Below are positions 1,627 to 18,441 of a stretch of 64,000 nucleotides of DNA, one piece after another. The position numbers were made by a program, and so were the translations under genes. The notes under the pieces are model-generated. The model saw nothing but the letters and a program-made list of their open reading frames with translations. It had not been told where the DNA came from and made no database searches. The stretch is from Candidatus Aceula lacicola (GTDB taxonomy: Bacteria > Omnitrophota > Gorgyraeia > Zapsychrales > Aceulaceae). The DNA is taken from assembly GCA_030765785.1 (NCBI GenBank), contig JAVCCC010000048.1, forward strand, positions 872 to 64,871, in the 5' to 3' direction. Numbering within the stretch: position 1 is the first letter of the stretch; every line of letters begins with the position of its first letter.

Positions 1627-2404
1627 TCGTGCCCAGAAAGGTTTGATTTTAAAAGAAGCTCGAGAAGCAAAAGGGATTGCCTTAGAGACGGTTCACGAGG
1701 CAACAAAGATTCCTTTAGATGCATTAAAGGCGATTGAAGAGGGATATCGTGTTCGGACGATGACAGATTTTTATTATAGGGCATTTGTGAAATTGTATAC
1801 AAATTATTTAGGAATTGAAATTACAAAAGTTTTAGAAGATTACCAGCCTGAAGAAATCCCAAAGCCGATGGCGTTTCATCGTGGAAAGAATTTTTGGGAA
1901 GACGAAAAACCGACCATTTTTACACCAAATGTCGTTCGCAATATTATCAAGGCAGTTGTTATTATTTTTGGGATTTTTATTGTTATTCGAGTTGGAGGAT
2001 GCATTTTTAAGCGAATACCAGAAAGCAATTCTAAGAAAACAACACGAGCTAAAACCGTTAAGAAAAAATCTACGCCTATTGTTATGTCAAAGCCCATTGT
2101 GGCTAAATCTAAGCCAGGAGAAAAAAGTTCTCGTATTTCTGGAAAAAAGGTTAATCTTGTTGTGCGCGCCAAAGAAAGAACATGGTTACGTGTATCCACA
2201 GATGGAAGCGAAGTGTTCCGTTCTTCGTTATCTAAGGGTGCTGTTGAGTCTTGGGATGCGAAAGAAAGAATTGAGTTGTCCGGAAAGAATTTGCGAGGCC
2301 TTGAACTAGAGTTAAACGGAAAAGCGATTAGATCTTTAGCCGATGGCGTTCGAGGTATTCATAAGATTGTCATAACGCCTAACGGCTTTACCGTCGAAGA
2401 ATAA
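1613..2404 (+). CDS. rodZ: RodZ-like cytoskeleton protein: N-terminal HTH, single TM segment, C-terminal RodZ_C/DUF4115-like domain.
   Basis: N-terminus resembles an XRE-type HTH (LILKEAREAKGIALETVHEATKIPLDALKAIE). Hydrophobic segment IIKAVVIIFGIFIVI, then a lysine-rich linker. C-terminal beta-rich domain ending RGIHKIVITPNGFTVEE. Confidence 0.55.
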   Translation: MKMDDRAQKGLILKEAREAKGIALETVHEATKIPLDALKAIEEGYRVRTMTDFYYRAFVKLYTNYLGIEITKVLEDYQPEEIPKPMAFHRGKNFWEDEKPTIFTPNVVRNIIKAVVIIFGIFIVIRVGGCIFKRIPESNSKKTTRAKTVKKKSTPIVMSKPIVAKSKPGEKSSRISGKKVNLVVRAKERTWLRVSTDGSEVFRSSLSKGAVESWDAKERIELSGKNLRGLELELNGKAIRSLADGVRGIHKIVITPNGFTVEE

Positions 2405-2418
2405 CATTTAAATTACTT

Positions 2419-3714
2419 GTGCAATTTTCAAAAACCCCAATCGTTGATCAAATCCCGAAGGCATCAAGCGTACGGCTTATTAATTTAGGTTGTGCTCGAA
2501 ACTTAACTGATGCGCAAACCATCTTAGGCCGGCTTAAGAAAAAAGGTCATCCTATCGTTCATAATCAAAAAGCAGATGTTGTTATTTTAAATACATGTTC
2601 TTTTATTGAGAGTGCGAAAAAAGAGACAATTGATTTAATTTTAGAGCTTATTGATTTAAAGAAAAAAAGAGTTATTAAAAAGATTGCAGTTGTTGGATGT
2701 TTTCCTCAACGTTATCCAAAACAAATGCGCAAGGAGTTTAAGGAAGTTGACTTTATCGATGGGGTTTTGGCTTTAGAAAAAGAAGAAAAAGAGGATAAAG
2801 TTATTTTAACGCCGAAATCTTATGTGTATTTAAAGATTTGTGAGAGCTGCTACAATCTTTGCCATTTTTGTGTGATTCCTAAAATTAAAGGTAAATTTGC
2901 TTCACGTTCAATAGAGTCAATTACAGAAGAAGCCACGAAATTTGATAAAAAGAGAATTAAAGAAGTTAATATTATAGGGCAAGATATTACTGCTTATGGT
3001 TTTGATATTTATAAGCGTAAAGCGCTTGTTGATTTGCTCAAAGGTTTGTTGAAAAGTACTAAGAATATTAAATGGTTTCGTCTTTTATATGCATACCCTA
3101 CGCATGTCACAGATGAATTGCTTGATCTTATGCAGGAGCAAAAACGTATTTGTCAGTATTTAGATATTCCTTTACAGCATATAAATGATAAAATTTTAAA
3201 GAATATGAATCGGAATTCTTCGAAAAGGAAAATAATCGTTTTAATTCAGAAGATACGGAAGAAAATGCCTCTTTGCTGTCTGCGCACCTCTTTTATCGTC
3301 GGATATCCTGGTGAGACAGAAGTTCAATTTAAGGAGTTATGTTTATTTGTTAGAAAGTTTCAGTTTGATCGAGTCGGTGTTTTTATGTATTCAAAAGAAG
3401 ATGGAACGAGAGCCGCGCGTTTACCTAGTCAAGTTTCAAAGAGCGTTAAACAAAGACGTTATGATGTTTTGATGAAACTTCAGCAGGAGATTTCTACTCG
3501 CAAGCTTAAGAATTTTGTTGGTAAGAAACTTTCTGTTATCATTGACGAAAAGATGAAGAATGATAAGGGAGTATACGTTGGTCGCAGTCAGTACGATGCT
3601 CCTGAAGTTGATGGCGTTGTTTATGTTGAAACAAAAAAGAAAATAAATCCAGGTGATTTTATTACAGTTGAAATAATGGACAGTTATGAGTATGATTTAA
3701 TAGGTAAATATTAA
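2419..3714 (+). CDS. rimO: Radical-SAM methylthiotransferase of the MiaB/RimO family, probably RimO (ribosomal protein S12 methylthiotransferase).
   Basis: N-terminal MTTase domain (LINLGCARNLTDAQ, NTCSFIE). Radical SAM CxxxCxxC (CYNLCHFC). C-terminal TRAM-like domain. Length 431 aa. Confidence 0.55.
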   Translation: MQFSKTPIVDQIPKASSVRLINLGCARNLTDAQTILGRLKKKGHPIVHNQKADVVILNTCSFIESAKKETIDLILELIDLKKKRVIKKIAVVGCFPQRYPKQMRKEFKEVDFIDGVLALEKEEKEDKVILTPKSYVYLKICESCYNLCHFCVIPKIKGKFASRSIESITEEATKFDKKRIKEVNIIGQDITAYGFDIYKRKALVDLLKGLLKSTKNIKWFRLLYAYPTHVTDELLDLMQEQKRICQYLDIPLQHINDKILKNMNRNSSKRKIIVLIQKIRKKMPLCCLRTSFIVGYPGETEVQFKELCLFVRKFQFDRVGVFMYSKEDGTRAARLPSQVSKSVKQRRYDVLMKLQQEISTRKLKNFVGKKLSVIIDEKMKNDKGVYVGRSQYDAPEVDGVVYVETKKKINPGDFITVEIMDSYEYDLIGKY

Positions 3715-3734: not shown

Positions 3735-4313
3735 ATGAATCTTGCAAATAAACTAACAGTATCACGTGTTTTCTTAACGATTTTATTTATTTTCTTTATC
3801 CGTCAGGAAAGTTTGACGTTTGCCGTCTTGGCGACCGCGACGTTTATGTTAGCATCATTGACAGATTATTATGATGGGTATATTGCTCGAAAATATAATT
3901 TGGTTAGCGATTTTGGAAAATTAATGGATCCTATTGCAGATAAGTTTTTGATGCTGGCTGCTTTTCTTGCGTTTGTGCGAATGAATATTGTCGGCGATTG
4001 GATGGTTGTTCTAATCCTAGGAAGAGAAATTATTATAACGGGATTAAGAATTTTTGCTTTAAGCAAGCAAAAGGTATTGGCTGCTGAAAAAGGTGGAAAA
4101 CACAAAACTGTTTCGCAGGTGGCAGCTATTTTTATTATTTTGGGATTTATTATTTTTAAGCGATCTGTCACGATTATCTCAGGATGGTCCGAAGATGTTG
4201 AATTTTGGTGGAAAGTAGGCATCAATGTCTCAATGCTTGTGACAGTTGCCTTGACGTTAATTTCTGGAATTTCTTATGTGTGGCGAAATCGACATCTTAT
4301 AAAAACACAATGA
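3735..4313 (+). CDS. pgsA: CDP-diacylglycerol--glycerol-3-phosphate 3-phosphatidyltransferase.
   Basis: CDP-alcohol phosphatidyltransferase motif DYYDGYIARK...G...DPIADK. Polytopic membrane protein of 192 aa. Confidence 0.75.
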   Translation: MNLANKLTVSRVFLTILFIFFIRQESLTFAVLATATFMLASLTDYYDGYIARKYNLVSDFGKLMDPIADKFLMLAAFLAFVRMNIVGDWMVVLILGREIIITGLRIFALSKQKVLAAEKGGKHKTVSQVAAIFIILGFIIFKRSVTIISGWSEDVEFWWKVGINVSMLVTVALTLISGISYVWRNRHLIKTQ

Positions 4314-4759
4314 AAAATACATTAGTAAAAATAGTATCAACTTTTTTTGGAATTGGCTATGCGCCTATTGCGCCAGGTAGCGTTGCAAGTGTGGTTGCGG
4401 GAATTTTGTCCGTCAGTCTTTTTGGAAATATGTATCTTTACGTCTTTGTCTTTTTAGTTGTAACAATTGTCGGATTTCTTATTTCAGGGAAGATGGAACC
4501 TATCGTTAAGGAGAAAGATCCATCGTGCGTTGTTATCGACGAGGTTTCTGGTGTGATGATTACGTTTTTCATGCTGCCTAAAACATGGCCTGTTTTAATT
4601 ACAGCATTCTTTTTGTTTCGCGCATTTGATATGTTTAAGATTTATCCTGCGAACTATTTTGAGAAAAAACCAGGCGGCGTTGGCATTATGATGGATGATA
4701 TTGTAGCTGGGATTTATGCTAATTTTGTTATGCAGATTTCTTTGCTTATTCTAAGATAG
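4310..4759 (+). CDS. pgpA: Phosphatidylglycerophosphatase A. Start chosen at the ATG overlapping the pgsA stop (ATGA); the ORF-track start at 4205 lies inside pgsA.
   Basis: PgpA-like membrane protein: FGIGYAPIAPGS and VIDEVSG motifs. It directly follows pgsA, the classic order of the pathway. Confidence 0.6.
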   Translation: MKNTLVKIVSTFFGIGYAPIAPGSVASVVAGILSVSLFGNMYLYVFVFLVVTIVGFLISGKMEPIVKEKDPSCVVIDEVSGVMITFFMLPKTWPVLITAFFLFRAFDMFKIYPANYFEKKPGGVGIMMDDIVAGIYANFVMQISLLILR

Positions 4760-4773
4760 AATAACTTTTAACA

Positions 4774-4922
4774 ATCCCGGAAACTTTGTTTTCGGGATAA
4801 ATTCGCGCAGATAATTTACGTTGCAATATTTATTAATATCGTTAATCCCGACACGTTGCACGTGCGGGATAAAGTTCAAAAATCTAAATGTTTAATATCC
4901 CGACACGTTGCACGTGCGGGAT
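4774..4922. repeat. Array of three hairpin/palindrome modules in the pgpA/BI-1 intergenic region. Each has the outer stem ATCCCG...CGGGAT followed by ATAAA. Copies 2 and 3 are identical 26-nt hairpins; copy 1 has a different inner stem.
   Basis: Hairpin 1 is 4774-4798 (atcccggaaactttgttttcgggat). Hairpin 2 is 4845-4870 and hairpin 3 is 4897-4922 (both atcccgacacgttgcacgtgcgggat). The flanks after copies 1 and 3 are similar (aaattcg..cag.a.a.tttacgtt). SD ggagg at 4981 and ATG at 4990 follow. Confidence 0.6.
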
Positions 4923-4989
4923 AAATTCGTCCAGAAAGTTTACGTTTACTAGCGTTCCGTAAGCTTGGGACTTATTTGAAGGAGGTATT

Positions 4990-5766
4990 ATGAGAAGATC
5001 ATCAAATCCGACATTGAATCCGGCAATATTTTCTCAGCTTGAGGCTGCGGGAAGTGAAGGAGCAATGACCGTTCAAGGAGCGGTGAATAAAATTTTTGTT
5101 TTGCTTTTTTTAGTTATGATCACGGCATCTTGGTCATGGGGGAAAATTTTTCAGCCTGCGTCAGATCTTGGCTTAAGTCAGGAAGCTGTGCCGATTTCTG
5201 GCACATCGATTGGGCTTATTACAGTTTGTGCTATTGTCGGTTTTATTATCGCATTTGTAACTATTTTTAAAAAACAATGGTCTCAGTTTACTGCGCCAGC
5301 ATACGTGTTGTGCGAAGGTGTTGTTTTAGGTGGGCTTTCTGCAATTTTCGAAATGCAATATCCTGGCATTGTTCTTCAGGCTGTTTGCCTTACGTTTGGA
5401 GTGCTTTTTGCCATGCTTTTGATTTATAAATCAGGACTGATTAAAGTGACGCAAAAGTTTCGTATGGGTGTGGTCGCAGCAACTGCTGGAATTGCCGTTG
5501 TTTATTTCTTGAGTTTTGTCTTGGGTTTTTTTGGAATACATTTGCCTTTTATTCAAGGATCGAGTACGATGGGAATTCTTTTTAGCTTGTTTGTTGTTGG
5601 AATTGCCGCACTAAATCTTGTTTTAGATTTTGATTTTATTGATCAGGGTGCTGCTCATCGTTTGCCGAAATACATGGAGTGGTATTCTGCTTTCGGTATC
5701 ATGGTTACCTTGATTTGGCTTTATATTGAAATTCTTCGATTGCTTTCAAAGTTAAGAAGAAGGTAA
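4990..5766 (+). CDS. Bax inhibitor-1/YccA (TMBIM) family inner-membrane protein.
   Basis: 258 aa. About 7 hydrophobic helices after a hydrophilic N-terminus. Basic C-terminal tail (LSKLRRR) typical of BI-1/YccA proteins. Confidence 0.5.
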   Translation: MRRSSNPTLNPAIFSQLEAAGSEGAMTVQGAVNKIFVLLFLVMITASWSWGKIFQPASDLGLSQEAVPISGTSIGLITVCAIVGFIIAFVTIFKKQWSQFTAPAYVLCEGVVLGGLSAIFEMQYPGIVLQAVCLTFGVLFAMLLIYKSGLIKVTQKFRMGVVAATAGIAVVYFLSFVLGFFGIHLPFIQGSSTMGILFSLFVVGIAALNLVLDFDFIDQGAAHRLPKYMEWYSAFGIMVTLIWLYIEILRLLSKLRRR

Positions 5767-9647: not shown

Positions 9648-10742
9648 ATGAAATTAAATTCTGACATAACTTATATGAAGATGGCACTTGATCTTGCGCT
9701 TAAGGCAAAGGGTAAGACTTCGCCTAATCCAATGGTTGGAGCAGTTATTGTTAAAAATAATCGTGTTATTGCAAAAGGATATCACAAGCGTTGCGGGGCT
9801 GATCACGCAGAGAGTGAAGCTTTAAAAAAAGCAGGACGCCTTTCTAATGGTGCGAAAATGTATGTTACGCTTGAGCCATGTGGGCATTTTGGTCGAACAC
9901 CGCCTTGTGTTGATGCGATCATTAAATCTGGCATCAAGGAAGTTATAGTTGGAACAAAAGATCCTAATATGAAAAATAATGGCAAATCAATTCGAAAGCT
10001 TAATGGAGCTGGCATTAAAACAAGAGTAGGGATTTTGGTCGATGAGCTTCTTTTGGCAAATGAAGTTTTTTTAAAATATGTGAAAAAAGGAATGCCGTTT
10101 GTTGTTGTTAAGTGCGCTCAGACAATGGATGGAAAGATTGCAACTGCTAGTGGGCATTCTAAGTGGATTACAAGTAAGGAAACGCGAAAATTAACGCATC
10201 AGTGGCGCAATGATTTTGATTCAATTTTAGTTGGAATTAATACAGTTGTTAAAGATAATCCGTATTTAAACGCAACTCAGAAATCAAAGCAGCTAAAGAA
10301 GATCATTATTGATTCGAAATTAAGAATTTCTTTGAGTGCGAATTTGTTTAAAAAAACAAATTCGCACAATATCTATATCGCAACAACAAAAGCGGCAAGT
10401 ATTAAGAAGATAGAAAGTTTTATAAAAAAGGGTGTGCATGTTGTTGTGTGTTCAGATAAGGACGGGCGTGTAGACTTAAAGAAGTTTTTTAAAGTTTTGG
10501 CGAAGAATGAAATAACGAGCGTTCTTGTTGAAGGAGGAGCGACTATTATAGGCAGTATTTTAAAGCAAAAACTTGCGGATAAAATATGGATTTTGATTGC
10601 GCCAAAGATTGTTGGAGATCAAGAGGCAAAAAGTTCAATTGCAGGACTTGGGATAAAAAATGTTAATCGTTCTTTAAAATTAAGCAATATACGTTTAAAA
10701 TGTTTTAAAAGCGATATTTTTATTGAAGCATATATAGGATAA
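9648..10742 (+). CDS. ribD: Bifunctional diaminohydroxyphosphoribosylaminopyrimidine deaminase / 5-amino-6-(5-phosphoribosylamino)uracil reductase.
   Basis: CMP/dCMP-type deaminase zinc motifs (HAE...PCGHFGRTPPC). C-terminal RibD reductase domain (VVVKCAQTMDGKIAT, LVEGGATI). Confidence 0.85.
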   Translation: MKLNSDITYMKMALDLALKAKGKTSPNPMVGAVIVKNNRVIAKGYHKRCGADHAESEALKKAGRLSNGAKMYVTLEPCGHFGRTPPCVDAIIKSGIKEVIVGTKDPNMKNNGKSIRKLNGAGIKTRVGILVDELLLANEVFLKYVKKGMPFVVVKCAQTMDGKIATASGHSKWITSKETRKLTHQWRNDFDSILVGINTVVKDNPYLNATQKSKQLKKIIIDSKLRISLSANLFKKTNSHNIYIATTKAASIKKIESFIKKGVHVVVCSDKDGRVDLKKFFKVLAKNEITSVLVEGGATIIGSILKQKLADKIWILIAPKIVGDQEAKSSIAGLGIKNVNRSLKLSNIRLKCFKSDIFIEAYIG

Positions 10743-10760: not shown

Positions 10761-11375
10761 TTGATGTTTTCAGGAATTGTTGAAGAAAAAGGTATTGTTC
10801 AAAAGATTGAGCGAAAAGAAAATTTAATTGTTTTATCCGTTAAAGCTAAGAAAGTTTTAAGAGGAATTAAAATCGGCGATAGCATTTCTACCGATGGCGT
10901 TTGCCTTACTGTAACGAAATTAAAAAAAGATGTTTTTACTTTTGATATCATGAAAGAAACAATGGATAAGACAACCTTGAAATATTTAGAAGTTGGGAGC
11001 AAGGTTAATCTTGAGGGTGCGCTTCGCGTTAATGATCGGCTGGGAGGCCATTTTGTATCAGGCCATATTGATGGGGTTGGGATAATTAAGAAAAGAATAT
11101 CAATGGAAAATTATGAAGAATTTCAAGTAACGATTCCTAAAAAACTTGCACGTTATTTGGCGGCTAAGGGTTCGGTTTGTATTGACGGGATTAGCTTGAC
11201 CCTTGGCGAAGTAAAGGGAAATATGTTTTCTGTTTATATTATTCCTCATACGCTCAAGGTGACAACATTGGGTTTTAAAAAAGATAAAGATAAAGTGAAT
11301 ATTGAAACAGATCTTCTGGCAAAATATATTTTGTCTGCGCGCGAACAAGATTTAATTCTTAGAAAGAGTAAATAA
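10761..11375 (+). CDS. ribE: Riboflavin synthase alpha chain.
   Basis: MFSGIVEEKG start. Two lumazine-binding repeats (GDSISTDGVCLTV and GSVCIDGISLTL). Confidence 0.8.
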   Translation: MMFSGIVEEKGIVQKIERKENLIVLSVKAKKVLRGIKIGDSISTDGVCLTVTKLKKDVFTFDIMKETMDKTTLKYLEVGSKVNLEGALRVNDRLGGHFVSGHIDGVGIIKKRISMENYEEFQVTIPKKLARYLAAKGSVCIDGISLTLGEVKGNMFSVYIIPHTLKVTTLGFKKDKDKVNIETDLLAKYILSAREQDLILRKSK

Positions 11376-11383
11376 ATTAAATA

Positions 11384-12622
11384 ATGAAAAAAAGAATTCT
11401 TATAACAGGGTTTGGCATTTTATCGAGTATCGGCAAGGGACGCCAAGAGTACTGGAAGTCTCTTAGAGAAGGAAAACCAGGCTGGGCTTCGGTGACTTTA
11501 TTTGATACTTCTGATCTTATGGTTCATCAGGCCGGAGAGGTTAAAGATTTTGATCCAAAGGTGTATATGGGTCAAAAAGGTTTACGGTCGCTTGATCGCA
11601 GCACAAAGTTATTGGTTTCTGCAGCAAAACTTGCCATTGAAGATAGTCAATTTACCATTACTGAAGAAAATACGGATGATTTAGGCGTGTCTGTTGGGAC
11701 AACTTTAGGAAGCGTTAAGAGTATTAGTGATTTTCAAGAAGTCACTTTGCGTGAAGGCCCTCGCTATACCAATCCAGCTTTATTTCCAAACACAGTTATT
11801 AATTCTCCTGCTAGCCAAGTTTCCATTTGGCACAACATTAAAGGATTTAATTCGACTATTTCAACTGGGTTTACAGCTAGTCTTGATGCAATGAAATATG
11901 CATATGATTTTATTCAGCTTGATAGGGTTAAGATGGTGTATGTAGGTGGAGTTGAGGAAATGTGTCGACAAACATTTCTTGGATTTCATGCGCTTAAGTT
12001 TTTGTCGGGATCAATAGAAAATAGTCAGTTTATTAGCTGTCCTTTTGATAAGAGAAGAAATGGTATTGTTTTTTCTGAGGGCGCGTGTTTGTTGGCGATG
12101 GAAAATTATGATCACGCGATTAAGCGTAAAGCACCTGTTTTAGGAGAAATTTTAGGATTTGGAACAAGTTTTGATCCGTATCGAATTAATAAATATAATC
12201 CAAAAGCAGAGGGATTGCAGCGTGCGATTCAGCTTGCCCTAAAAGAATCAAATCTTAAAACAACGGATATTGATTTTATTGTGTCAAATGCAAATTCAAC
12301 GCCGTCAGCCGATCGCATCGAGACTTTTGCTATTAAAGAAGTTTTTCAGGAACATGCTTATAAAATTCTTATCAGCGCGCCAAAGTCGATGACTGGTGAA
12401 TCTTTTAGTGTTTCGGGTGCACTTTCAGTGTCTGCAGCTCTATCGGTTTTTGATGATGATTCTATTTTTCCAACAATCAATTATAGGAAAAAAGATGTTG
12501 ATTGTGATTTAGATTATGTTGTGAATAAATCACGAAAAGCAAAGGTTAACAATGTTCTTGTGATTATCGCATCGCCAAGTGGAAACAATACGTGCGTGGT
12601 GTTGAGGAGGTTTATAAAATGA
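11384..12622 (+). CDS. Beta-ketoacyl-ACP synthase (FabF/FabB, thiolase-fold) family paralog in which the catalytic Cys-His-His triad appears replaced (Phe/Asn/Glu). Probably a non-catalytic KS-like protein.
   Basis: Recalled FabF motifs aligned by eye. The active-site ATACTSG context reads STGFTAS (Cys to Phe). NAHGTSTP reads SNANSTP (His to Asn). KSMTGHLLG reads KSMTGESFS (His to Glu). Overall KS-like N- and C-terminal architecture is retained. Confidence 0.65.
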   Translation: MKKRILITGFGILSSIGKGRQEYWKSLREGKPGWASVTLFDTSDLMVHQAGEVKDFDPKVYMGQKGLRSLDRSTKLLVSAAKLAIEDSQFTITEENTDDLGVSVGTTLGSVKSISDFQEVTLREGPRYTNPALFPNTVINSPASQVSIWHNIKGFNSTISTGFTASLDAMKYAYDFIQLDRVKMVYVGGVEEMCRQTFLGFHALKFLSGSIENSQFISCPFDKRRNGIVFSEGACLLAMENYDHAIKRKAPVLGEILGFGTSFDPYRINKYNPKAEGLQRAIQLALKESNLKTTDIDFIVSNANSTPSADRIETFAIKEVFQEHAYKILISAPKSMTGESFSVSGALSVSAALSVFDDDSIFPTINYRKKDVDCDLDYVVNKSRKAKVNNVLVIIASPSGNNTCVVLRRFIK

Positions 12623-13368
12623 ATTTGATAAAAGGCAAGGTTGCAATTGTAACAGGTGGTTCCAGAGGAATTGGTCGCGCAATTTGTTTAATGCTGGCTG
12701 GTCAAGGTTGTCATGTCGTATTTAATTATGCTAAAAACAAGGAAGCTGCGTCTGCGCTTGAAAAAGAGATTAAAGCGCTTGGGGTAAAAGTAAAGGCATC
12801 GCAAGTCGATATCAAAGATTTTGATAAAGTGAAGGAGTGGATTGAAAGTATTAAGAAAGAATTTGGTACGTTCCATCTCTTGATAAATAATGCAGGCATC
12901 ATCGCTGATAAAGCGTTAATGCTAATGGCGCAGGAAGACTGGCAAAACGTTATCGATACAAATTTGACAGGGGTTTTTAATATTACGCGTTGTTGTATTA
13001 CGACTTTCTTAAAACAAAAAGAGGGTAACGTTATTAATGTTTCTTCGGTTAGCGGGAAGATTGGTTTGCCAGGACAGGTTAATTATTCGGCGAGCAAAGG
13101 AGGGCTGGATGCCTTTACCAAAGCGTTAGCTAAAGAGGTGGCTGCATACAATGTGCGAGTCAATAGTGTTGCACCTGGTTTTATTGAAACAGATATTTTA
13201 AAAGAGTTTTCCTCAGAAGAGCGCGAAAAGATTAATAAGCTGATCCCAATGGGAAGGGCGGGAACGCCTGAAGACGTGGCTGGATGTGTTAAGTTTTTGT
13301 TGAGTCCAGAAGCACAATATATTATTGGAGAAAATATTCAGATGGATGGTGGATTAGCCATTCGATAA
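12619..13368 (+). CDS. fabG: 3-oxoacyl-ACP reductase (SDR). Start at MNLIKGK, preceded by a ggagg SD.
   Basis: GKVAIVTGGSRGIGRAI Rossmann motif, NNAG, catalytic S...YxxxK (YSASK). Confidence 0.8.
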   Translation: MNLIKGKVAIVTGGSRGIGRAICLMLAGQGCHVVFNYAKNKEAASALEKEIKALGVKVKASQVDIKDFDKVKEWIESIKKEFGTFHLLINNAGIIADKALMLMAQEDWQNVIDTNLTGVFNITRCCITTFLKQKEGNVINVSSVSGKIGLPGQVNYSASKGGLDAFTKALAKEVAAYNVRVNSVAPGFIETDILKEFSSEEREKINKLIPMGRAGTPEDVAGCVKFLLSPEAQYIIGENIQMDGGLAIR

Positions 13369-13380
13369 AGGAGAGGTTTT

Positions 13381-13815
13381 ATGCAATTAAATATTCAAGA
13401 AATTAAAAAAATTATTCCGCATCGATTTCCATTTTTGCTCATAGATCGTGTTGTTGATCTTGTTCCAAACGAGAAACTTGTTGCGATTAAAAACGTGACT
13501 GCCAATGAGCATTTTTTTGAAGGACATTTTCCAAATGAAAAAGTGATGCCAGGGGTCCTCATTTTGGAGGCTATGGCGCAGGCAGGATGTATTTATTTTT
13601 ATTATAGTCGCGATCTTCAAGGAAAAAATCTTTATTATTATCTTGGTAAGGCAACTGTTAAGTATTTCGCACCTGTTGTTCCGGGTGATCAGCTTAAAAT
13701 AGAGGTCACCACTATTAAGTTTTTGAAGAACACCGGGGTTGTCAAGACTCAGGCTTTTGTTGGAGAGAAGCTTGTCACCGAAGCCGAGATTGTTTTTTCA
13801 ACCAAAGAAGCTTAA
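13381..13815 (+). CDS. fabZ: 3-hydroxyacyl-ACP dehydratase FabZ.
   Basis: Hot-dog fold motifs (LPHRFPFLLIDRV, HFFEGHFPNEKVMPGVLILEAMAQ). Confidence 0.85.
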   Translation: MQLNIQEIKKIIPHRFPFLLIDRVVDLVPNEKLVAIKNVTANEHFFEGHFPNEKVMPGVLILEAMAQAGCIYFYYSRDLQGKNLYYYLGKATVKYFAPVVPGDQLKIEVTTIKFLKNTGVVKTQAFVGEKLVTEAEIVFSTKEA

Positions 13816-13834
13816 ATTTCTTCAAAATCCTCAA

Positions 13835-13863
13835 TTGACTCATCTTTCTTTAAGTGATAAACT
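13835..13863 (+). promoter_or_regulatory. Candidate sigma70-type promoter upstream of tRNA-Pro (TTGACT, 17-nt spacer, TAAACT).
   Basis: ttgact at 13835-13840 and taaact at 13858-13863, about 50 nt upstream of the tRNA 5' end. Confidence 0.35.
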
Positions 13864-13913
13864 ATTGAAAAATATCATTATTGTTAACTTCGTGAACATA
13901 AAACACGATAAAA

Positions 13914-13988
13914 CGGGAAGTAGCGCAGCCTGGCTAGCGCGCAACGTTCGGGACGTTGAGGTCGTGGGTTCAAGTTCCACCTTCCCGA
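13914..13988 (+). tRNA. tRNA-Pro, anticodon CGG. No CCA is encoded.
   Basis: Manual cloverleaf fold. Acceptor cgggaag/cttcccg with C1-G72 and discriminator A73, both typical of bacterial tRNA-Pro. D-stem gcgc/gcgc. Anticodon stem caacg/cgttg with loop ttCGGga. T-arm gtggg-ttcaagt-tccac. Confidence 0.8.
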
Positions 13989-13996
13989 TTTAATTT

Positions 13997-14272
13997 ATGG
14001 TACAAGCAAGTATTTTTTATTCTGGAGTTGTTCAAGGTGTTGGATTTCGTTATACAACGCAACGAATTGCGTTAGGTTTAAGCCTATGCGGTTGGGTTAG
14101 AAATCTTTCAGATGGTCGGGTTGAAGTTTTAGCTGAGGGACCTAAAGAAAAAATTGAGCAATTGATAGTTGAGCTTAATGAGCACTTTTTACAGGATATA
14201 AAAAATCATCAGATTAATTATTATTCGGTTACAGGAAAGCATTATGGATTTTCTGTCGCACCAACATATTAG
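13997..14272 (+). CDS. acyP: Acylphosphatase.
   Basis: 91 aa. [10 protein letters not shown]...[13 protein letters not shown] acylphosphatase signatures. Confidence 0.75.
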
Positions 14273-14289
14273 ATTGAGGTAAGTTTTTT

Positions 14290-17544
<3,255 letters not shown>

Positions 17545-17553
17545 GCGTTTTTT

Positions 17554-18441
17554 ATGAAAGATTATCTTCAGGAATTTCTTAACCATTTATTTGTCGAGCG
17601 AGGGTTAGCTAAAAATACAATTATGGCTTATCAGCGGGACCTTATGCAATATGTTCAACATTTTTCTCGTAAAGGCATCAAAGATCCAGATGCGATCAAG
17701 AGAAGCGATATCACAGGATATATGCAAAAGCAAAAGACACGAGGTCTTTCGTCTAGCTCGATTTGTCGTAGCTTGGCAGCGATACGAATGTTTCATCGGT
17801 TTTTGGCTCGAGAGCGACTGGCTAAAGAAGATCCGACTCATCTTTTGGAAACTCCAAAGATGTGGCAGAGAATCCCAGATGTCTTAACAGTAAGCGAAAT
17901 TGAAGAGATTATTAAGACTTCTCAAGGGCGCAAGTGGCAACAGATTCGAGACAATGCTATTTTGGAGCTTTTGTATGCAAGCGGTATGCGTGTCTCTGAG
18001 CTTGTTGATTTGAAGGTGGAGAATGTTAATACGGAAATCGGATATGTTCGATGTATTGGAAAAGGTCAGAAAGAGCGCATTATTCCGATTGGACGAAAGG
18101 CAAGAGATTCCGTTGTTAAGTATTTAGAAAAAGTCCGAGGTAAACTTGTCAAAACAGATTTTAATTTTTCTTTATTTGTAAGTCGTTTGGGAAAGAAGAT
18201 AAGTCGTCAGAGTATTTGGAAAATTATTAAGCGTTATGCAAAGTTTGCAAAAATAAAGAAGGAAATTAAGCCGCACACATTTCGTCATTCTTTCGCAACT
18301 CATCTTTTAGAGCATGGCGCAGATTTAAGATCTGTTCAGGAGATGCTGGGACATTCTGATATATCAACAACGCAGATTTATACTCATGTTGATAGAGAGC
18401 GACTAAAATCGATTCATAAACAGTTTCATCCAAGGCCGTAG
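17554..18441 (+). CDS. xerD: Tyrosine site-specific recombinase, XerD-like.
   Basis: Catalytic R...HxxR...Y block (HTFRHSFATHLLEHGADLRSVQEMLGHSDISTTQIYTHV). N-terminal NTIMAYQRDL resembles XerD. Confidence 0.65.
   Translation: MKDYLQEFLNHLFVERGLAKNTIMAYQRDLMQYVQHFSRKGIKDPDAIKRSDITGYMQKQKTRGLSSSSICRSLAAIRMFHRFLARERLAKEDPTHLLETPKMWQRIPDVLTVSEIEEIIKTSQGRKWQQIRDNAILELLYASGMRVSELVDLKVENVNTEIGYVRCIGKGQKERIIPIGRKARDSVVKYLEKVRGKLVKTDFNFSLFVSRLGKKISRQSIWKIIKRYAKFAKIKKEIKPHTFRHSFATHLLEHGADLRSVQEMLGHSDISTTQIYTHVDRERLKSIHKQFHPRP

Follow-up and report, generated by a model that had tools for sequence, protein, structure and literature searches.

What are the three strong hairpins that lie between pgpA (phosphatidylglycerophosphatase A) and a gene of the BI-1/YccA family in Candidatus Aceula lacicola (Omnitrophota), and do they serve this one gene or something more general? 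The locus is part of a 64,000-nucleotide stretch of contig JAVCCC010000048.1 (assembly GCA_030765785.1), to which we refer as the window. An earlier note, made from the letters of the window, described three units with the same outer stem, ATCCCG/CGGGAT, and left open whether they represent a cis-regulatory RNA leader, an array of dimeric transcription-factor operators or a small dispersed element of the REP/MITE type. The last of these options is the one that our analysis favours. The hairpins belong to a multi-copy repeat family that is found beside unrelated housekeeping genes in four phyla, and the same spacer is free of the element in four relatives.

One complete and two partial repeat units in the pgpA-BI-1 spacer

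The spacer extends over 230 bp from the pgpA stop codon (4759) to the BI-1 start codon (ATG 4990), is identical in other strains of the species, and has its first hairpin 14 nt after the stop codon. When the window was searched with ATCCCG-N10-18-CGGGAT, three matches (4774-4798, 4845-4870 and 4897-4922) were obtained, compared with 0.01 expected by chance (100 dinucleotide shuffles), which confirms that the three hairpins are real. Each of them has 11 pairs, with one G-T pair in copy 1 and a bulged A after the 6-bp outer stem in copies 2 and 3. The similarities that had been pointed out between the copies also hold. Copies 2 and 3 share an identical stretch of 29 nt that ends with the AAA, and the flank 3′ of copy 1 (4793-4822) shares 87% identity with the flank 3′ of copy 3 (4917-4946). 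Likewise, the statement that nothing comparable occurs elsewhere in the window stands, as CGGGATAAA is confined to the three hairpin sites and a covariance-model search with filters off retrieved no further repeat copies from the 64 kb. The description of the unit itself, however, was correct for the hairpins only and covered just half of the unit: a second hairpin and a 3′ box downstream of copy 3 had been overlooked. Naming the first hairpin of a unit P1 and the second P2, the features of the locus are as follows, where L004 denotes the corresponding locus of a related species (GCA_028693815.1).

4310-4759, + strand: pgpA, the 5′ neighbour (public gene call, Pfam PgpA; equals L001 9321-9770)
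4774-4798, + strand: P1a, hairpin of unit 1, ATCCCGGAAAC-TTT-GTTTTCGGGAT; identified by pattern match, not present in L004
4799-4820, + strand: tail of the P2-less unit 1, made up of the linker AAATTC, 7 nt that replace P2 and a box-like TAATTTA; 87% identical to the flank of unit 3
4845-4870, + strand: P1b, hairpin of unit 2, ATCCCG-A-CACGT-TGC-ACGTG-CGGGAT, without P2; ortholog in L004 at 9850-9876
4871-4896, + strand: spacer AAAGTTCAAAAATCTAAATGTTTAAT between units 2 and 3; 23 of 26 positions shared with L004
4897-4922, + strand: P1c, the same hairpin as P1b and the P1 of the sole complete unit; within the covariance-model match 4894-4980
4923-4929, + strand: linker AAATTCG, a fixed part of the search pattern for the scanned genomes, though not imposed here; its G (4929) opens P2
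4929-4971, + strand: P2, a bulged hairpin (minimum-free-energy fold, z = -3.3) whose positions match the family P2
4971-4978, + strand: 3′ box CTTATTTG (family consensus CTCATTTA), just 5′ of the BI-1 Shine-Dalgarno sequence
4981-5766, + strand: Shine-Dalgarno GGAGG (4981-4985) and the BI-1/YccA gene (ATG 4990, end with stop codon 5766), directly after the unit

According to the predicted fold, P2 rests on a GTCC/GGAC base (4929-4932 paired with 4968-4971), followed by a 3-nt bulge and an upper stem AAGTTTACG/CGTAAGCTT (4936-4944 paired with 4958-4966), and the BI-1 Shine-Dalgarno sequence is unpaired. The spacer region as a whole folds better than its shuffles (z = -5.1). The complete unit (4894-4980) scores 68.5 bits (E = 1e-14) against the covariance model of the family described below. 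The same model aligns unit 1 end to end (4771-4820, 27.3 bits), with 45 P2 positions reduced to 7 nt. In both P2-less units the hairpin is succeeded by a linker and a box of the same kind as in the complete unit. The unit spacings are 71 and 52 nt. These data show that the spacer contains three copies of a structured intergenic repeat of about 85-95 nt, one of them complete and two lacking P2, and that each of the three hairpins is the P1 module of one copy.

An undescribed repeat family in four phyla

With the pattern ATCCCG-N11-17-CGGGATAAATTCG we searched 185,579 species, each represented by one genome. Since 19 bases are fixed by this pattern, their apparent invariance among the matches is imposed. 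A looser 15-base pattern had proved too unspecific on viral contigs, with at least 120 matches that were single chance ones, and the 19-base pattern was adopted for this reason. In total, 86 stretches matched, compared with about 30 expected by chance (by arithmetic, assuming uniform base composition), and roughly as many matches as chance predicts fall in coding DNA without further features. About 45 of the 86 stretches possess features that were not imposed: a P1 interior that is self-complementary with a different sequence in each copy, a second hairpin, and CTCATTTA. The covariance model, for which 33 aligned copies were used, retrieves 50 copies at E < 1e-6, and the copies found by the model also vary at pattern bases (ATCCCA/TGGGAT, AAGTTC, AAATGCG). 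The order of the unit is P1 (AUCCCG, a variable top and CGGGAU; 23-29 nt with 8-13 pairs), the linker AAAUUC, P2 (long, bulged and closed by G-C) and the 3′ box CUCAUUUA. P2 is opened by the linker G and consists of a 4-bp base, a 2-3-nt bulge and an upper stem of about 10 bp, and its closing C is the first base of the box. The box is 84-96% conserved over 50 copies, although the pattern did not impose it.

Hosts of the family are Omnitrophota (including Ca. Aceula meridiana, where the locus orthologous to that of the copy, L132, is not present in the window), Planctomycetota (Planctomycetales), Smithella and other Desulfobacterota, and Bacteroidota. All family-bearing genomes were assembled from metagenomes, and every true match stems from an uncultivated lineage. 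Neither A. lacicola nor the related assembly GCA_028693815.1 is among the genomes matched by the species scan. With the 19-base pattern, viral contigs gave one weak match comprising P1 only, and plasmids gave none. An Rfam search of the spacer region, which had been suggested as a check, matched no family: in Rfam 15 nothing reached the gathering score in the region, in the whole window or in 18 loci with canonical copies, and two copies searched at E up to 10 yielded chance-level matches only. Full-text literature searches by sequence string and keyword found no description of the motif. The repeat family is undescribed, matching no Rfam family and nothing in the searched literature.

The neighbours of the copies are ordinary housekeeping genes, with 148 open reading frames (ORFs) around the copies, representing half of the loci, distributed over 225 Pfam families. 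Gene calls at the family loci are simple ORF calls that were checked against Pfam for key examples. Junctions verified in this way are groES-[motif]-groEL, argF-[motif]-argG, with a second copy in opposite orientation before argB of the same operon, and xerC-[1-3 tandem units]-hslV in seven Smithella genomes. Further verified neighbours are rpmF, rpsP and acpP, and gdhA, miaB, mnmA and ftsW are other, unrelated ones. In five Bacteroidota the motif is located at the mnmE stop codon. Relative to both neighbours, 17 copies have the same and 19 the opposite orientation. If the motif has the orientation of the genes, the start codon follows 2-13 nt after the 3′ box or directly abuts it (CTCATTT-ATG). 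In the opposite orientation, the other-strand gene has its stop codon inside the reverse complement of the box (TAAATGAG).

Copies are also multiple within single genomes. Several metagenome-assembled genomes (MAGs) were matched on 2-3 contigs, and at least eight MAGs contain 2-4 copies, either distributed over different contigs or together within 8 kb. Some of the 8-kb loci (L148, L197, L155, L200, L202) hold additional copies that the pattern does not match. Beyond the copies by which the loci were found, there is, as a rough figure, about one extra copy per 55 kb. Arrays consist of 2-3 units with a period of 82-122 nt. The stem sequences of copies in one genome differ completely. Taken together, the family is dispersed, multi-copy and cross-phylum, and it occupies short spacers of housekeeping genes in either orientation, sometimes as head-to-tail arrays.

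Several of these sites allow observations in their own right. The two copies in the arginine-biosynthesis operon of L200 are located at 2163-2245 (+), between argF and argG, and at 5267-5363 (-), before argB. The Smithella xerC-hslV spacers contain head-to-tail arrays of whole units with a period of 83-95 nt (L168 3450-3731, L203 5242-5520, L170 6471-6634), and the xerC stop codon comes from the 3′ box of the motif or lies beside it, so that the last residues of XerC vary by species (…PRAKNK, …PRAKK, …PRAKHQ). At the Bacteroidota mnmE sites (L129, L162/L138, L180, L190, L195) the motif has the same place and orientation, convergent, and the stop codon (after …FCIGK) is inside the reverse complement of the box. 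Contigs start or end inside the motif or its arrays at L138, L161, L163, L169 and L211, and L163 and L169, from one MAG, have the same unit. Short-read assemblies thus seem to break at the repeat arrays.

Covariation of both hairpins

The pairing of P1 and P2 is supported across the family. In a MAFFT alignment of 33 copies, which was not fitted to a model, 88.7% of the cells are paired, compared with 23-50% with slid partners. The 50-copy alignment, which was fitted to the covariance model and thus favours the structure, reaches 92.8% paired cells versus 23-45% when the 3′ partners are slid. It shows compensatory changes at 14 of 20 pairs, a score that was attained by none of 500 shuffles. 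Within P2, compensatory changes affect 12-13 of the 14 pairs. Compared with shuffled versions of themselves, the P1 tops also fold better (mean z = -1.9). Stem covariation in relatives, which the earlier note had proposed to look for, is thus present, both across the family and in the ortholog of P1b, where the inner stem shows a compensatory change from A-T in one species to G-C in the other (window versus L004 9850-9876).

Gain of the array and subsequent constraint

The gene order rimO-pgsA-pgpA-BI-1 is kept in relatives. In four of them, whose BI-1 is 60-62% identical, the pgpA-BI-1 spacer measures merely 20, 16, 34 and 15 nt and has no motif. L004, with a BI-1 that is 85% identical, has a spacer of 173 nt with orthologs of units 2 and 3, and lacks unit 1. 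Because the outgroup spacers of 15-34 nt are motif-free and L004 holds units 2 and 3, the comparison shows that the array was gained in the Aceula lineage, with unit 1 added or lost later.

Between the window and L004, units 2 and 3 with their spacer and linker are about 83% identical, and four-fold degenerate sites of the flanking genes 50-57%. The spacer at 4871-4896 alone is identical at 23 of 26 positions. P2 has diverged to an approximately neutral level, yet the hairpin forms in both species. These patterns show that the array has been under purifying selection since the gain, with the sequence itself constrained in P1 and the linkers and only the pairing constrained in P2. The P1 copies within each species are identical or nearly so, which indicates that neighbouring P1 copies were homogenised. 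The outer stem of unit A in L004, GTCCTG/CGGGAT, pairs on this strand only with G-T wobbles.

Comparison with known repeats and structured elements

REP, BIME and REPIN elements are stable hairpin repeats that occur in tens to hundreds of copies per genome in transcribed operon spacers, in either orientation and often flush with stop codons, and the REPs of E. coli stabilise upstream mRNA. With its 23-29 nt, P1 has the form of the short (20-40 nt) imperfect stem-loop palindrome that is typical of REPs. Unlike a REP, which is a single palindrome or an inverted doublet, the family unit combines two different hairpins with conserved single-stranded boxes. It forms head-to-tail arrays, and its stems differ fully within a genome while the flanks hold across four phyla. 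The REP super-families in the literature are characterised by a GTAG or CGTC tag (PMC3733652). An unpaired tag of this kind is missing from the family: the four bases before P1 are variable, reading NNAG in about one third of the copies and GTAG in 1 of 49, with no CGTC.

ERIC/IRU and Correia (NEMIS) elements measure about 100-150 nt, are intercistronic and co-transcribed in both orientations, and have reported effects on mRNA processing or stability. They have terminal inverted repeats, TA duplications and near-identical copies per genome, whereas the ends of our family are non-complementary, no consistent duplication is seen and the copies are divergent. MIRUs are units of 46-100 bp that occur singly or in variable-number tandems in operon spacers and abut stop and start codons. 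They are oriented with the operon and contain small ORFs for translational coupling; the family, in contrast, is found in both orientations and its stems co-vary as structure. IS200/IS605 elements and PATEs resemble the family in that both ends have subterminal hairpins, terminal inverted repeats are missing and AAAT might pair with ATTT. In the family, P1 and P2 are unlike each other, and neither a fixed target tetranucleotide on the variable left flanks nor a clear strand bias is seen.

P1 plus linker (…CGGGAUAAAUUCG, 29-36 nt) presumably resembles a type I-E CRISPR repeat, in which a hairpin is followed by AUAAACCG, and GGGAUAAA is, as we take it, common to the E. coli repeat; we regard this as a lead only. 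CRISPR arrays have unique spacers, whereas the "spacers" here are conserved P2 hairpins or linkers and the hairpin tops differ between units. The exclusion of a CRISPR array in the earlier note is upheld by the window itself, where unit 1 is unlike units 2 and 3, the spacings of 71 and 52 nt are unequal, the interval from unit 2 to unit 3 is kept in the related species and no cas genes or domains were detected within ±10 kb of the array.

Other candidates were considered and rejected. The core nucleotides of self-cleaving ribozymes (hammerhead, pistol and others) do not fit and Rfam was negative for them, and there is no R/L box consensus of integron attC sites. The copies are orientation-independent, which is at odds with boxA/nut antitermination. 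As for CsrA sites, GGA is within the stem, and to our knowledge Bacteroidota lack CsrA. Arms resembling parS occur in one P2 only and are not general, and a mini-ORF from a reverse-strand ATG has no conserved length.

mRNA punctuation as the favoured reading

We favour, with a probability of roughly 0.55, a structured intergenic repeat akin to REP, BIME and ERIC, dispersed and multi-copy, that is kept as mRNA punctuation and is not specific to BI-1. By analogy with these elements we infer, with moderate confidence, that the repeat would provide hairpin punctuation of polycistronic mRNA. Some copying process would spread it, and it would be retained because, when co-transcribed, its two stable hairpins could serve as exonuclease barriers on either side of an A/U-rich single-stranded linker that would be accessible to an endonuclease. 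RNase E prefers a purine, any base, the cut, A or U, and then UU, and AAAUU would fit this preference. At the locus in the window, P1 would serve as a cap for the rimO-pgsA-pgpA message upstream and P2 as one for that of BI-1, with the Shine-Dalgarno sequence left free. The outer P1 stem is identical to its reverse complement, which is nearly true of the linker core AAATT as well. Because of this near-palindromic nature both strands give two hairpins with an A/U-rich stretch between them, which might permit action in either orientation. The folding energies of the two strands are uninformative, the reverse strand being slightly better by about 2-3 kcal/mol on average.

A number of observations weigh against this reading. 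In A. lacicola, a single locus is seen over about 74 kb. G-U mismatches at consensus pairs are exactly as common as A-C mismatches (18 versus 18), and this balance holds in both orientation classes, unlike in typical structured RNAs. TTCG occurs in the P1 top of 22 of 42 copies and its complement CGAA in 3 of 42. The top is thus strand-specific, and the bias persists in copies that are antisense to the flanking genes (14 versus 0 of 22). A purely co-transcribed RNA role does not predict this bias, although shared ancestry of a Smithella/Bacteroidota sub-family may explain part of it. Moreover, the paired outer P1 stem and the 3′ box are strongly conserved in sequence, which a simple barrier leaves unexplained and which suggests a dedicated binding partner.

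Alternative explanations

The main rival is a strand-specific, possibly formerly mobile element that would act at the DNA level by folding as single-stranded DNA, similar to REP/RAYT or IS200/IS605 systems. A trans-acting enzyme would read P1, P2 and the flanks, and any effect on RNA would be incidental. We regard this explanation as possible, yet doubtful. It would accommodate the insertion into a spacer of formerly 15-34 nt, the head-to-tail arrays with their variable copy number and contig breaks, the occurrence in both orientations relative to the genes, even within one operon, and both the symmetric mismatch spectrum (G-T = A-C) and the strand-specific TTCG, which is independent of the direction of the flanking genes. 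A direct repeat resembling CTCATTT is found 5′ of P1 in some copies (L173, L181, L133, L187 and the Smithella arrays), whereas most copies from Omnitrophota and Planctomycetes lack it. In addition, AAAT 5′ of the P2 foot could presumably pair with ATTT at the 3′ end, as an IS200/IS605 guide does with its cleavage site, which again is a lead only. On the other hand, the 148 neighbouring ORFs show no enrichment of transposase, integrase or mobile-element genes and include no TnpA/TnpB, and no Y1 transposase is among the families common to the neighbouring ORFs, which cover 8-kb genome pieces only. The complete difference between the stems of one genome speaks against a recent burst. Terminal inverted repeats are missing, as the 5′ ATCCCG... 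and the 3′ ...CTCATTTA are not complementary, and neither a consistent target-site duplication nor a GTAG/CGTC tag (PMC3733652) is seen. The fixed positions at the mnmE stop codon of several Bacteroidota and between xerC and hslV in seven Smithella, with pairing maintained, as well as the strong sequence constraint after insertion, are not what a mobile element would lead one to expect. The same applies to the orientation of about 50:50 relative to the genes, a proxy by which there is no strong replication-strand bias, and to the near absence of the family from viral contigs and plasmids. RNA punctuation and a single-stranded DNA element are not mutually exclusive, as REPs show.

The other explanations fare worse, and some of the same data decide against them. 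Of the exclusion of a terminator in the earlier note, the part concerning the three P1 hairpins stands; it does not extend to the overlooked P2, which is flanked by AAAT...ATTT and might be a weak, possibly bidirectional intrinsic terminator or attenuator that sets the read-through between adjacent genes, with P1 as an accessory. P2 has a 5′ A-tract and a 3′ TCATTTA, and its reverse strand reads hairpin-CGAATTTAT. A terminator scan flags a weak match, a hairpin at 4954-4971 followed by TTATTTGAAG, which overlaps the 3′ arm of P2, and where the motif is antisense the stop codon of the upstream gene overlaps the P2 end, as the position of a terminator would. Nevertheless, we deem a terminator unlikely. 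Neither P1 nor P2 is a G+C-rich hairpin directly before a U-run: the run after P2 is short and interrupted (UCAUUUA), and P1 precedes AUAAAUUCG. Copies also reside within the obligatorily co-transcribed pairs groES-groEL and argF-argG, and the 13-nt linker, the 6-bp stem sequence and the 8-nt box are kept across phyla, unlike in terminators. Less probable still is an independent small RNA gene or a tandem array that would act as small RNAs or as a protein sponge, with P2 as terminator and the linker as seed or binding site. Its layout would be a 5′ hairpin, a conserved A/U-rich single strand and a 3′ hairpin with a U-containing tail; tandem copies are known from some small-RNA families, and the strand-specific loop motifs are independent of flanking genes. 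Yet there is no consistent promoter-like element 5′ of P1 in a search that included the Bacteroidota TAnnTTTG box, only 0-15 nt separate many copies from the upstream stop codon, and the array units abut and leave no room for a promoter. Furthermore, there are tens of dispersed copies, some of them antisense inside groESL and arg operons.

A regulator specific to BI-1/YccA, be it a riboswitch, a protein-binding leader or a dimeric transcription-factor operator array, is largely refuted by the distribution of the family and has hardly any probability left. It would agree with the position directly 5′ of the BI-1 Shine-Dalgarno sequence in two Aceula species, with the sequence conservation there and with the folding of the region (z = -5.1). 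A pattern search beyond the window had been set beforehand as the test, and it returned copies scattered beside unrelated genes, which counts against gene-specific regulation. A riboswitch or leader would be expected in sense orientation in the 5′ untranslated region of a coherent gene set, whereas the module is found beside rpsP, acpP, gdhA, miaB, mnmA, argB, ftsW, groEL and others, about half of the copies being antisense to both neighbours. The leader proposed in the earlier note thus fails, with copies in both orientations even in one operon. Four related genomes have no module 5′ of BI-1, and no Rfam family matches. The operator array fares no better, as the half-sites are separated by anything from 11 to 17 nt and the part between them co-varies as a stem, which does not fit an operator in double-stranded DNA.

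The conserved blocks (AUCCCG/CGGGAU, AAAUUCG and CUCAUUUA) together with the free, co-varying stems lead us to a further-reaching and tentative proposal. The repeat might be a so far unrecognised cis element that is read strand-specifically by a dedicated conserved protein. It would then belong either to a new operon-punctuation or RNA-processing system or to a new hairpin-dependent single-stranded-DNA transaction, i.e. a new class of recombination or transposition site, common to FCB (Fibrobacteres-Chlorobi-Bacteroidetes), PVC (Planctomycetes-Verrucomicrobia-Chlamydiae) and Desulfobacterota lineages for which metagenomes are almost the only source. Work on small structured intergenic repeats, among them REP, BIME, ERIC and Correia, has been confined almost entirely to cultivated Proteobacteria. 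The present family differs in its build, with two unlike hairpins, conserved single-stranded boxes, unusually clean covariation and an occurrence in four phyla. If the repeat acts on RNA, it would be a general device that uncouples the fates of neighbouring cistrons in very compact genomes; if it acts on DNA, it would point to a hairpin-recognising enzyme not yet known. In practical terms, its arrays would break short-read assemblies, and its capacity to donate stop codons to neighbouring genes affects the annotation of MAGs. For BI-1, the idea of a dedicated regulator is removed.

Additional observations

In three independent contexts (window 2419-3714, L134 2135-3499, L168 653-2056), a radical-SAM gene of the MiaB/RimO family is at most two genes away from the motif. 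Genes for tRNA modification or Fe-S (iron-sulfur) functions (mnmE, mnmA, rlmN, iscS, iscR) also recur beside copies, which may be due to chance among housekeeping operons. A perfect 14-bp hairpin, GTGCGAATTTGTTT/AAACAAATTCGCAC, at 10336-10367 of the window contains AAATTCGCAC, like the motif linker and P2 base. It was rejected as a repeat copy, as it lies inside the ribD ORF (9648-10742) and shows no other feature of the motif, so that the resemblance is probably a coincidence.

Downstream of BI-1 the relatives differ in gene content. Between BI-1 and cinA, L005 (GCA_964648665.1) has an ORF of 2329 residues (11269-18258) with Acetyltransf_1 as its only match, which is found neither in the window nor in L004. 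At the same place L004 has a gene of the LigT/2′-5′ RNA ligase family (11032-11601), which is shared with the P0007 genome and not with the window. Upstream, the start of pgpA is ambiguous: the longest ORF begins at TTG 4205 (4205-4759, 184 aa) and overlaps pgsA by 109 nt, compared with 149 aa in the public call (4310-4759).

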